IMG/VR virus record: IMGVR_UViG_3300040809_000504 | Span: 1 to 36,520 of that record | DNA from: a virus | Reading direction: 5' to 3' (one strand) | Length of the DNA stretch: 36,520 nucleotides | In this document: positions 1-36,520 of the stretch, one piece after another | Position numbering within the stretch: position 1 is the stretch's first letter | How the letters are laid out: each line of letters opens with the position of its first letter | Position numbers and translations under genes: made by a program | The notes under the pieces: model-generated | What the model was told of the DNA's origin: nothing | The model's input: the letters and a program-made list of their open reading frames with translations, nothing else | The model's database searches: none

Positions 1-127
1 TATGGCTATGGCTCTGGCGATGGCGATGGCTATGGCTCTGGCTATGGCTCTGGCGATGGCTATGGCTATGGCTCTGGATCTGGCGATGGCGATGGCTCTG
101 GCTCTGGCTATGGCTCTGGCTCTGGCT
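1..127. repeat. Exact terminal direct repeat. Bases 1-127 equal 36394-36520 (contig-end overlap, indicating circular or circularly permuted closure).
   Basis: Base-by-base comparison of both ends found no mismatch. The unique length of 36,393 is divisible by 3, so reading frames are preserved across the junction. Confidence 0.95.
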
Positions 128-306
128 CTGGCTCTGGCGATGGCGATGGCGATGGCTATGGCGATGGCTCTGGCGATGGCTCTGGCTATGGCTATTTCTC
201 TGGCTCTGGCTCTGGAGATGGCGATGGCTATGGCTATGGCTCTGGCTATGGCTCTGGCGATGGCTCTGGATCTGGCGATGGCGATGGCTCTGGCTCTGGC
301 GATGGC
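1..306 (+). repeat. Imperfect tandem hexanucleotide array (GGC-TCT / GGC-GAT / GGC-TAT), continuing from 36328-36520.
   Basis: 51 consecutive hexamers lie here. The only departures are GGA for GGC at 76-78, 217-219 and 268-270, and TTC for GGC at 196-198. The array is much more GC-rich than its flanks. Confidence 0.95.
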
Positions 307-309
307 TAA
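1..309 (+). CDS. 3' part of the wrap-around Gly-X dipeptide-repeat protein gene (frame 1, stop TAA at 307-309).
   Basis: Frame 1 reads YGYGSGDGDGYGSG...GSGSGDG*. The TAA overlaps the ninB ATG (TAATG at 307-311), a typical coupling junction. The 5' part with its ATG lies at 36295. Confidence 0.6.
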   Translation, partial: YGYGSGDGDGYGSGYGSGDGYGYGSGSGDGDGSGSGYGSGSGSGSGDGDGDGYGDGSGDGSGYGYFSGSGSGDGDGYGYGSGYGSGDGSGSGDGDGSGSGDG

Positions 310-731
310 TGAATGATTTTAAGTTAACCACCGCTATGCTACCTGAGTTAATAAGACTGCTAAAAGAATTATTAACATCAGGTAAAGCATACAGAGTAAA
401 TGTTAAAGAGTGGCGAGAGCAAAGAAGTCTCTCGCAAAACTCACTTTACTGGCAATGGCTTGGTGTTATATCAAAAGAGTTAAAGCCAAACGACCAAGAG
501 CACAAACCAGAAGTTTGGCATGAGTATTTTAAAAAATATTTTTGCCCAATTAAATTAATATCGATGCCAGCCGGTAAAGATGTTGAAATTAAAAGCACTA
601 AAGTTTTAGATGTTGGCGAAATGTGCCACTACATGACGCAGATACATAACTGGGCGGCTGGTCATATGTTAGCTTTACCGGTACTAGAAAATAGCGATTA
701 CAAACAAAACTTAGATAAACAAGAAAGGTGA
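309..731 (+). CDS. ninB: NinB-family recombination protein (lambda Orf/NinB-like).
   Basis: 140 aa. The motif RSLSQNSLYWQWLGVIS matches lambda NinB RSLDQNRKLWACLGDVS. Its position in a nin-like region alongside ninG supports the call. Confidence 0.8.
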   Translation: MNDFKLTTAMLPELIRLLKELLTSGKAYRVNVKEWREQRSLSQNSLYWQWLGVISKELKPNDQEHKPEVWHEYFKKYFCPIKLISMPAGKDVEIKSTKVLDVGEMCHYMTQIHNWAAGHMLALPVLENSDYKQNLDKQER

Positions 732-1375: not shown

Positions 1376-1467
1376 TGAAATTTAAATTTTGGTGGCACAA
1401 TAACGGCTGGTGGTTAGTAATACTGCTAGCCGTTTTGTTTTTATTATTAACGGCAATTTATAGGTGA
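1375..1467 (+). CDS. 30-aa single-TM peptide between the endolysin and the holin (lysis accessory or antiholin-like candidate).
   Basis: MKFKFWWHNNGWWLVILLAVLFLLLTAIYR. Its ATG overlaps the endolysin stop (TGATG). It is below the ORF-track size cutoff. Confidence 0.45.
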   Translation: MKFKFWWHNNGWWLVILLAVLFLLLTAIYR

Positions 1468-35074: not shown

Positions 35075-35637
35075 ACCGGGCAAAACAAAAAAAATGCAAA
35101 CAATGTAAATCACCATTCACTCCATTTAACTCACTACAAAAAGTCTGCGGCGCTAAATGCGCCAACGACTTTGCAATAGCAGAGCGTGAAAAGAAAGAAG
35201 CTAAAGCAAAGGATGATGATATTAAGCGAGTAAAGCAAAAGCTAAAGCAGTTAAGCATGAAAGATAGACCAAAAGCTTTGCGTGCAGCTCGTGAAGCGTT
35301 TAACGCATTTATTCGATACCGCGACAAAGATTTTCCATGTATAAGCTGCCAGAGACACCACAGCGGCCAATATCATGCTGGCCATTACAAAACAAAAGGC
35401 GCTCACCCTGAGTTAGAATTTAATGAGTTAAATTGCCACAAGCAGTGCGCGCCATGCAACAACCATTTAAGCGGTAACATTGTAAATTACAGGCCAAATT
35501 TAATTGATAAAATCGGGATTGATAAAGTTGAGTTGATTGAAGGTTCTCACGAACCAAAAAAATACACGGTTGATGAGTTGTGGCAAATACGCGATAAATA
35601 CAAAATTAAATTAAAAGAGTTAAAAGCGCTTGACTAA
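35071..35637 (+). CDS. ninG: NinG/Rap-family recombination endonuclease.
   Basis: The protein is collinear with lambda NinG. Shared segments are CKQC...FNAFIRYRDKDFPCISC..GQYHAGHYKT...ELNCHKQCAPCNNHLSGN. Confidence 0.85.
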   Translation: MNRAKQKKCKQCKSPFTPFNSLQKVCGAKCANDFAIAEREKKEAKAKDDDIKRVKQKLKQLSMKDRPKALRAAREAFNAFIRYRDKDFPCISCQRHHSGQYHAGHYKTKGAHPELEFNELNCHKQCAPCNNHLSGNIVNYRPNLIDKIGIDKVELIEGSHEPKKYTVDELWQIRDKYKIKLKELKALD

Positions 35638-35685
35638 ACCATAAATAGAACCCATAATAAAACCCAGTTAAGAAATGAGGTTTAC

Positions 35686-35913
35686 ATGGCTGTATTCAAA
35701 ACTAATATACCAGAAGATATAAACGATATGATTAAGCAAGCAGCTAAAGATTCGTTCATGTCACGACAAAAGTATATAGAAAAATTAATTCATGATGATG
35801 CTGAGAATCAAGCGCGAATTATGTTAAGAAGTAAAAAATGTCGCACTCGTTGTGGTGCTAAAGATTTAAAAACCGCTGCGCAATTGCAGCAAGAAAATAA
35901 AGGTGAAATATGA
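35686..35913 (+). CDS. Ribbon-helix-helix-like small protein.
   Basis: 75 aa. The N-terminal FKTNIPEDINDMIKQAAKDSFMSRQKYIEKLI fits a beta-strand plus two-helix RHH pattern. Confidence 0.45.
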   Translation: MAVFKTNIPEDINDMIKQAAKDSFMSRQKYIEKLIHDDAENQARIMLRSKKCRTRCGAKDLKTAAQLQQENKGEI

Positions 35914-36311
35914 TTAATTTAGACGATTTAACAATAGGTCAATTAAAGCAAATTCAAGCGTTAAATTTTGGCGCTAACAATGAAAATTTAAAGTCAAAAT
36001 GTAACGATGGTTTAAATTGCATGATCGGAAAAAAAGTAATTGTTAGAACTTATAGCGCTGGCGTTTGGTTTGGTGAGTTGGAGCAAAAAAGCGGCGATGA
36101 AGTAATATTAAAAAACGCGCGCAGAATGTGGCGATGGCACACAGTAAAGTCAATCAGCTTATCAAGCGTGGCAATTCACGGAATAGATCAAAGCAAATCA
36201 AAAATATGTGAAGCAGTTACTAGTCAGTGGCTAGAAGCAATTGAAATTACACCTTGCACAGATACCGCTATCGAATCTTTGGAGTCTGCTAAAAATGCAA
36301 AAGCTCAATAA
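35910..36311 (+). CDS. Conserved phage protein of unknown function.
   Basis: 133 aa. The segment RTYSAGVWFGEL...ARRMWRW...SLS..A is one I recall as widespread in phage early regions. Confidence 0.55.
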   Translation: MINLDDLTIGQLKQIQALNFGANNENLKSKCNDGLNCMIGKKVIVRTYSAGVWFGELEQKSGDEVILKNARRMWRWHTVKSISLSSVAIHGIDQSKSKICEAVTSQWLEAIEITPCTDTAIESLESAKNAKAQ

Positions 36312-36520
36312 AAAACAAATTTACTGCTCTGGCTCTGGCTCTGGCGATGGCTCTGGCGATGGCGATGGCGATGGCTATGGCTCTGGCTCTGGCTATGGCT
36401 ATGGCTCTGGCGATGGCGATGGCTATGGCTCTGGCTATGGCTCTGGCGATGGCTATGGCTATGGCTCTGGATCTGGCGATGGCGATGGCTCTGGCTCTGG
36501 CTATGGCTCTGGCTCTGGCT
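36295..36520 (+). CDS. 5' part of the wrap-around Gly-X dipeptide-repeat protein gene (continues at base 1 after removing the 127-bp duplicate).
   Basis: The ATG at 36295 is in the Gly frame, with GGAG 10 nt upstream. It overlaps the upstream gene by 17 nt. The product reads MQKLNKKQIYC then SGSGSGDGSGDGDGDGYG... Confidence 0.6.
   Translation, partial: MQKLNKKQIYCSGSGSGDGSGDGDGDGYGSGSGYGYGSGDGDGYGSGYGSGDGYGYGSGSGDGDGSGSGYGSGSG
36328..36520 (+). repeat. Hexanucleotide array (GGC-TCT/GAT/TAT), 5' portion.
   Basis: The array starts abruptly after ...ATTTACTGC. There are 32 hexamers to the contig end, and the last 127 bp duplicate bases 1-127. Confidence 0.95.
36394..36520. repeat. Terminal duplicate of bases 1-127.
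   Basis: The two copies are identical over all 127 bases. Confidence 0.95.

Follow-up and report, generated by a model that had tools for sequence, protein, structure and literature searches.

A glycine-frame hexanucleotide repeat gene that spans the contig ends of a phage genome and follows a DUF6948 gene whose product has a predicted Sm-like fold

Several proteins of the Hfq and Sm families bear low-complexity tails, which include the Gly-rich C-terminal repeats of Acinetobacter and Moraxellaceae Hfq, the acidic tip of E. coli Hfq and the Gly-Arg dipeptide repeats of the eukaryotic proteins SmD1 and SmD3. In the proteins FUS, EWS and TAF15, the low-complexity domains carry [G/S]Y[G/S] motifs, and the crystalline repeats of the Bombyx mori fibroin heavy chain are built on an alternation of Gly with Ala, Ser or Tyr. 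Here, we describe a phage gene whose product alternates Gly with Ser, Asp or Tyr and which is located directly behind a gene for a protein with a predicted Sm/LSm-like fold.

The gene is encoded in a viral DNA stretch of 36,520 nt (IMG/VR record IMGVR_UViG_3300040809_000504), the whole of which is referred to as the window in the following. A preliminary description of this DNA had proposed that the hexanucleotide array at the contig ends belongs to a gene that is translated in the Gly frame and crosses the contig junction, and it had suggested a re-linearisation of the genome as a check. Indeed, closure of the circle gives a single Gly-frame ORF of 408 nt on the + strand (36295..36520 joined to 128..309), which ends with the TAA at 307-309 and encodes a product of 135 aa. 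It was also correctly noted that the ORF track shows only the Ala frame (2..316) at this place; the Gly frame is listed only if open ends are allowed. The abrupt beginning of the repeat could likewise be reproduced, since the array starts at 36328, directly after the 11-aa head MQKLNKKQIYC. The features of the region are the following:

35630..35658, + strand: promoter-like site, weak (10/12 consensus match), ahead of a 75-aa gene, the DUF6948 gene and the repeat gene, in a region where the number of promoter-like sites is not above that in shuffles
35910..36311, + strand: upstream partner gene, 133 aa, Pfam DUF6948, the last 17 nt of which overlap the start of the repeat gene
36282..36285, + strand: Shine-Dalgarno-like GGAG, 9 nt before the ATG at 36295 and within Leu-Glu codons of the upstream gene
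36295..36520, + strand: 5' part of the repeat gene, with ATG, 11-codon head (36295-36327) and the hexanucleotide array from 36328 onwards
1..309, + strand: 3' part of the repeat gene, unique from 128, with the stop TAA (307-309) in a one-base overlap with the NinB ATG (309-311)
1..127 (= 36394-36520), no strand: assembly overlap, wholly inside the array, present once per genome
309..731, + strand: NinB/Orf recombination mediator (phrog_72, E 4.8e-28), translationally abutted to the repeat gene
1402..1434, + strand: first strong terminator-like hairpin downstream, a 13-pair stem followed by a T run

The repeat gene is part of a run of + strand genes, in which no terminator-like site precedes the hairpin at 1402..1434. 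A second in-frame tandem array was observed further downstream (2109-2281; 18-nt unit, 9.6 copies, 92% match) within an ORF at 1965-2489, the 174-aa product of which has sub-threshold matches to Pfam beta-solenoid and bactofilin repeats as well as PHROG matches of unknown function.

A script comparison over the whole 36,520-nt window revealed that the ends overlap exactly by 127 nt (1-127 = 36394-36520), and a circle of 36,393 bp remains after removal of one copy of the overlap. The IMG/VR record is flagged as a virus with direct terminal repeats and as 100% complete. The overlapping 127-mer is unique because the order of the Ser, Asp and Tyr units in the array is aperiodic and the longest exact repeat internal to the array amounts to only 41 nt. 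The largest k-mer that common de Bruijn assemblers usually employ is 127 as well. The overlap is thus exact, k-mer-sized and unique, and its closure restores the gene order, as in circular contigs made by an assembler; in the closed circle, the Gly frame stays in register across the join, and one in-frame ORF, built like the repeat genes of relatives, is located between the DUF6948 gene and NinB. We conclude that the window represents a phage genome of 36,393 bp, either circular or circularly permuted, which was cut by the assembler inside the hexanucleotide array. The physical join and the exact repeat number are those of the assembly, and indirect arguments support the join.

One of these arguments comes from relatives of the locus. 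Five related contigs ending inside a Gly-X array were examined, and in four of them, all of genome length (36.6, 44.6, 42.3 and 37.3 kb), halves of the array are found at both ends on one strand, with the half at the contig start terminating in a Gly-frame stop. Three of the four are IMG/VR contigs (G001:C1, G002:C1 and G003:C1, which underlie the loci L076, L074 and L058), and the fourth is G004:C38 (locus L022); the three viral ones are classed as 'linear' in IMG/VR. These contigs probably represent complete circular genomes that were left unclosed inside the array, and the presence of array halves at both of their ends indicates that Gly-X arrays are routine break points of circular phage assemblies. 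NinB was not found as the downstream neighbour in the loci of the relatives, so that NinB synteny gives no support for the join.

Following the head, the repeat protein consists of 62 X-Gly dipeptides, in which X is Ser (28), Asp (20) or Tyr (14). The underlying units are TCTGGC (25 copies), GATGGC (20), TATGGC (13), TCTGGA (3) and TATTTC (1), i.e. Gly occupies 61 of the 62 second positions and Phe the remaining one. Neither Lys nor Arg occurs after the head, next to the 20 Asp and 14 Tyr residues, and the Gly-X stretch of a modelled long homologue, described below, has a pLDDT of <50. From this we infer that the repeat protein is acidic, tyrosine-rich and intrinsically disordered. Searches against PHROGs, Pfam and PADLOC returned no meaningful match for this protein, apart from low-complexity matches below the threshold (TrAA12, Serglycin and keratin), and a homologue search with its 75-aa 5' part gave 26 weak matches, all without names. 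Collagen-like (period 3, Gly-X-Y) and RTX-type (GGXGXDXUX) repeats were considered as well and rejected, since the period here is 6 nt or two residues and the array is devoid of GG doublets and of a hydrophobic position.

For a comparative view, homologues of the 133-aa DUF6948 protein were collected from IMG/VR and GTDB genomes, resulting in 131 loci, 109 of which are non-redundant. In 125 of the 131 loci, DUF6948 is directly followed by a Gly-X run of 13 or more residues. This cassette, i.e. a DUF6948 gene with a Gly-X ORF on the same strand that starts in or next to its end, is present in the window and in hundreds of phage and prophage contigs of Proteobacteria, Bacteroidota and Firmicutes, including prophages of Neisseria and Moraxella. 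Nine homologues from Bacteroidales and Firmicutes (L034:2791-3516, L035:2776-3324, L037, L038, L040, L042, L044, L046 and L048) are longer: a single Gly-frame ORF encodes a head, then a Gly-X stretch whose length varies, and finally a conserved domain of about 150 aa. Their head is helical (MExxIKEFL), and the C-terminal domain contains the motifs FAHGET and WHxxLTGSCxxGR, within which FAHG and W-H-x2-L-T-G-S-C-x2-G are invariant. The AlphaFold2 model of one long homologue reached a pLDDT of 83.5; its C-terminal domain had no fold match in the PDB and matched only unnamed or automatically named viral models, the best of which is called 'Lamprin'. An enzymatic or binding domain that is as yet uncharacterised may be present here.

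Homologues were also found in three cultured phages. In Pectobacterium phage Sabo, the Gly-frame homologue CDS0035 is annotated behind the DUF6948 gene with a 17-nt overlap, and in Ralstonia phage NK-7, the Gly-frame homologue behind DUF6948 (XCO36015.1) bears the automated name 'fibroin heavy chain-like protein'. The genome of Iodobacter phage phiPLPE (NC_011142) contains an intact Gly-X ORF of 78 aa between phiPLPE_84 and phiPLPE_83 (L132:1173-1409), which is unannotated in RefSeq, overlaps by 17 nt and begins with the head MSRLVNN. Sabo and phiPLPE resemble the window in the order of the two genes, the 17-nt overlap and a head of the type M-S-[K/R]-L; none of the homologues in the three phages has a described function. 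The context of the cassette varies: it is located in the nin region between NinG and NinB in the window, beside tail genes in Sabo, near the gene for the small terminase subunit in NK-7 and adjacent to an HNH endonuclease gene in phiPLPE. No third gene upstream of DUF6948 proved to be conserved, as the neighbours at this position are not homologous across the loci and the 75-aa gene of the window is a singleton. No PHROG, PADLOC or Pfam family assigns a function to the cassette.

Regarding the start of the repeat gene, the preliminary description had placed it at the ATG at 36295, in phase with GGC and with GGAG 10 nt upstream. Both statements hold: the ATG (36295-36297) is in register with the GGC codons, and the GGAG at 36282-36285 differs from it by 10 positions, with 9 intervening bases. 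This ATG sits 17 nt inside the 3' end of the preceding DUF6948 gene. The repeat gene starts with ATG in 107 of the 109 non-redundant related loci. It reaches into the upstream gene by 17 nt in 46 loci, which is the commonest class and that of the window, by 4 nt (ATGA) in 23 loci of a Neisseria clade and by 13 nt in 11 loci of Bacteroidales and Firmicutes. A Shine-Dalgarno-like GGAG, GAGG or AGGA motif is located 3-12 nt upstream of 59% of the 109 homologous starts, compared to a background of 8% inside the upstream genes, without correction for kinship. In three loci (L095, L027 at about position 2800, and L096), the ATG of the repeat gene directly follows the DUF6948 stop in the same frame, and read-through of this stop codon would give a natural fusion of DUF6948 and the repeat.

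The head of the repeat protein is conserved too. The motif M-x-K-L-N-K together with the 17-nt overlap is common to 46 of the 109 relatives, and the head motif can be written as M-S/P/Q-K/R-L-N/D-K/N-P; MQKLNKKQIYC in the window agrees with its shorter form M-x-K/R-L-N/D-K/N. Since the Neisseria clade, with an overlap of only 4 nt, keeps the head L-[N/D]-K-P (for example MSYLDKP), the head is not a mere echo of the overlapping C-terminus of the upstream protein. Translation of the repeat gene is probably coupled to that of the upstream gene, as in most relatives. At its other end, the Gly frame had been described as terminating in a stop that overlaps the next start in a TAATG arrangement used elsewhere in this genome. 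The TAA at 307-309 does overlap the NinB ATG, but the second part of this statement needs to be corrected, because among the gene junctions of the window only that between the repeat gene and NinB is a real TAATG overlap; the usual overlap of this genome is ATGA (15 cases, + strand).

The two other frames of the array lack a plausible start, in agreement with the earlier view. In the Ala frame, which opens after the TAA ending at 36292, the first ATG/GTG/TTG is the ATG at 36347, which lies 20 nt inside the array and is preceded by no SD-like motif; in the Trp frame, there is no ATG/GTG/TTG from the TAA at 36309-36311 to the NinB ATG at 309, but only one CTG. The openness of a frame does not discriminate between the candidates and is a weaker argument than it looks, since the Ala frame is open in 99 of the 106 related arrays and two reverse frames are open in about as many. 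More informative are the codons. The Ser codons of the related arrays comprise both TCY (600) and AGY (300), and Tyr, Asp and Asn are encoded by T-ending as well as C-ending codons; read in the Ala frame, such T/C changes would replace Met by Thr or Leu by Pro. Although a single mutation would suffice to produce Thr, Ala, Pro, Ile or Val, the arrays hardly contain these residues, and the three GGA codons of the window are silent in the Gly frame only. From these patterns, i.e. synonymous variation with retained residue identity, we conclude that selection acts on the Gly frame only. The same frame is annotated in GenBank for the phages Sabo and NK-7. The junction-crossing model in the Gly frame is thus supported by comparative evidence, and we are highly confident that one gene extends from the ATG at 36295 to the TAA ending at 309 across the contig junction.

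The arrays differ widely in length. In the prophages of Neisseria (L110-L131, L030 and L031, including records of N. gonorrhoeae and N. sicca), 14 different arrays of 156-390 nt occur among 18 loci whose DUF6948 segment is identical. The lengths of these 14 arrays are all multiples of 3, and one of them differs by 3 modulo 6. The Gly-X array is thus a hypervariable prophage locus in Neisseria, and as the arrays evolve fast, the number of units in a metagenomic assembly may be that of one variant of a population. The composition of the array stands out as well: its G+C content in the window is 61% compared to 38% in the genome, 95% of its Gly codons are GGC compared to 34% in the rest of the genome, and all of its 28 Ser codons are TCT, which accounts for 18% genome-wide. 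Across the arrays of very different hosts, GGC makes up 85% of 3,275 Gly codons and is dominant in 94 of 106 arrays. Recent duplication of units accounts for the codon uniformity within one array, but not for the family-wide preference for GGC. With respect to tRNA-Gly as a cause of this bias, no tRNA gene was found in the window. The RNA of the window array is predicted to fold far better than shuffles (z = -6.7). However, this advantage over shuffles is restricted to NNU arrays, and for arrays with NNC codons the predicted folds are poorer than those of shuffles (median z +3.2); since the fold is absent or reversed in NNC arrays, the RNA fold of the window is a by-product of its GGC-NNU codons and is not conserved. 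A role of the array purely as a nucleic acid is unlikely.

Several other explanations have to be weighed against this gene model. The real gene could be the Ala-Met/Ala-Leu frame (2..316) with a hydrophobic, Ala-rich peptide as its product, as it is the sole complete ORF listed without open ends and is open in nearly all related arrays (99/106). Its first start is located within the array and lacks an SD, though, and the T/C changes that are synonymous in the Gly frame would switch it between Met and Thr or Leu and Pro, just as the choice between TCY and AGY for Ser would mean Leu versus Ala or Val; moreover, the conserved head and C-terminal domains of the relatives are encoded in the Gly frame, which makes the Ala frame next to impossible as the real gene. 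It is scarcely credible, too, that the open frames are incidental and the array has no coding role, as a hexanucleotide microsatellite or as a structured element of RNA or DNA. Its G+C content, its GGC usage, the z-score of its RNA fold and its very rapid change in length would suit such an element, but the predicted folding is not conserved, the array is preceded by a conserved ATG, SD and head, the same residues are kept through different codons, relatives have a globular domain joined in frame to the repeat, and every length variant is a multiple of 3. The class of direct terminal repeats, under which the record is listed in IMG/VR, would also be in line with a linear virion genome that has the 127-bp repeat as its true termini, so that the gene would be split in the packaged DNA. 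Against this stand the match of 127 with the usual top k-mer of assemblers, the position of the repeat within a coding array and the related contigs, which break in the same kind of array without having matching ends; as circularisation would restore the gene anyway, we regard a true terminal repeat as extremely improbable.

Two further alternatives concern the extent of the protein and its physical state. Translation of the junction-crossing gene could begin at the TTG at 36241, which is in frame, is followed by no stop before the ATG at 36295 and would add 18 residues, or a +1 frameshift close to the overlap could join the repeat to the Sm-like protein, an idea for which it speaks that the two genes always overlap or abut and that Sm and Hfq proteins are known to bear such tails in cis. 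Many relatives have a stop codon directly before the conserved ATG of the repeat gene, which makes an earlier in-frame start impossible there and argues against the TTG. A frameshift ORF needs neither a start codon of its own nor an SD, but here the repeat gene has its own ATG in 107 of 109 loci and an SD-like motif far above background, and the overlap is 17, 4 or 13 nt depending on the clade, with no common slippery sequence. A programmed-frameshift fusion, which would be recognised by a missing start and a conserved slippery site, was rejected on these grounds, and overall we consider an alternative N-terminus of either kind very unlikely. As to the physical state, the repeat protein may not be disordered but assemble in the manner of silk, into beta-sheets or fibrils that have one face of Gly and an opposite face of Ser, Asp or Tyr, and serve as structural or matrix material. 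The strict Gly-X alternation (61/62) does match the crystalline repeats of the silkworm fibroin heavy chain, and the GenBank name of the NK-7 homologue points in the same direction. But X is Ser, Asp or Tyr here and not Ala or Ser, the 20 Asp residues would repel one another at neutral pH, and in relatives the repeat has a pLDDT of <50 and is used as a spacer of variable length between two folded parts, which renders a silk-like material unlikely, compared to a disordered protein encoded by the Gly frame.

The partner encoded upstream belongs to Pfam family DUF6948 (PF22253), with a score of 108.1 bits compared to a cut-off of 27 (E 2.4e-31) and the profile covered in full (1-85). Its AlphaFold2 model, which was built on 70 homologues, has a pLDDT of 90, and the best 50 Foldseek matches of this model in the PDB are all Sm, LSm or archaeal SmAP proteins, with a TM-score of up to 0.73 on the target. 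An N-terminal helix and a strongly bent five-stranded beta-sheet, as in the Sm fold, are seen in the predicted model only. At the level of sequence, no Pfam LSM or Hfq match was found for the DUF6948 protein, one relative had a sub-threshold match to SM-ATX (E 0.006), and the family profile gave 0 matches against all PDB sequences. Based on the model, the DUF6948 protein is predicted to have an Sm/LSm-like fold.

These properties allow for a functional proposal. Coupled translation would supply the DUF6948 Sm-like protein and the repeat protein together, and the conserved N-terminal head would dock the disordered arm, which is acidic and aromatic, onto the Sm-like protein. In trans, the arm would then take the part that Gly-rich or acidic tails play in cis in Hfq and Sm proteins, and it would compete with or tune the binding of nucleic acids or promote higher-order assembly. 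By analogy with these tails, we tentatively suggest that the repeat protein might act as a disordered acidic partner of the Sm-like protein. More speculatively, and with somewhat less confidence, the Sm-like protein and its separate Gly-Ser/Asp/Tyr partner might constitute an RNA- or ssDNA-binding ring of the phage, whose detachable low-complexity arms, acidic and aromatic, would regulate binding of the substrate or drive condensates in the course of infection, and the hypervariable length of the array would tune this system or allow it to evade recognition by the host. As a whole, the explanation that combines the gene model with the inferred function is very likely the best one.

The result is a gene-model correction of a real annotation error: default ORF calling gives a wrong-frame Ala-Met ORF and misses the gene that runs across the contig ends. 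As Gly-X arrays break circular assemblies, the gene often appears truncated or in a wrong frame in annotations, or it is missing from them, as in phiPLPE. The cassette is common in phages and yet without a description in the literature searched, and its function is therefore a testable question.

In comparison with the known systems, the phage protein shares with Bombyx mori fibroin the occurrence of Gly at every second residue over long stretches, but it carries polar or acidic residues instead of Ala at the X positions, is not homologous to fibroin in sequence and is predicted to be disordered. The resemblance to FUS, EWS and TAF15 consists in G-Y-G and S-G-Y-G motifs in a disordered Gly/Ser context with 14 Tyr residues, whereas the phage repeat has a strict period of 2, contains 20 Asp and no Gln, is very short and is of bacterial-viral origin. 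With the tailed Hfq and Sm proteins, the phage pair has in common a small core with an Sm fold, which is a predicted one in the case of the phage partner, and a long disordered Gly-based segment resembling dipeptide repeats. In contrast to these proteins, the tail is encoded separately in the phage, behind an ATG and SD of its own, its X residues are Ser, Asp and Tyr (acidic and aromatic) instead of Arg or Phe/Gln, and the partner has no similarity to Sm proteins or Hfq at the sequence level, the likeness being that of a predicted single-chain fold. If the proposal holds true, a ring with detachable arms would represent a split version, acting in trans, of the design that joins an Sm core to a tail.
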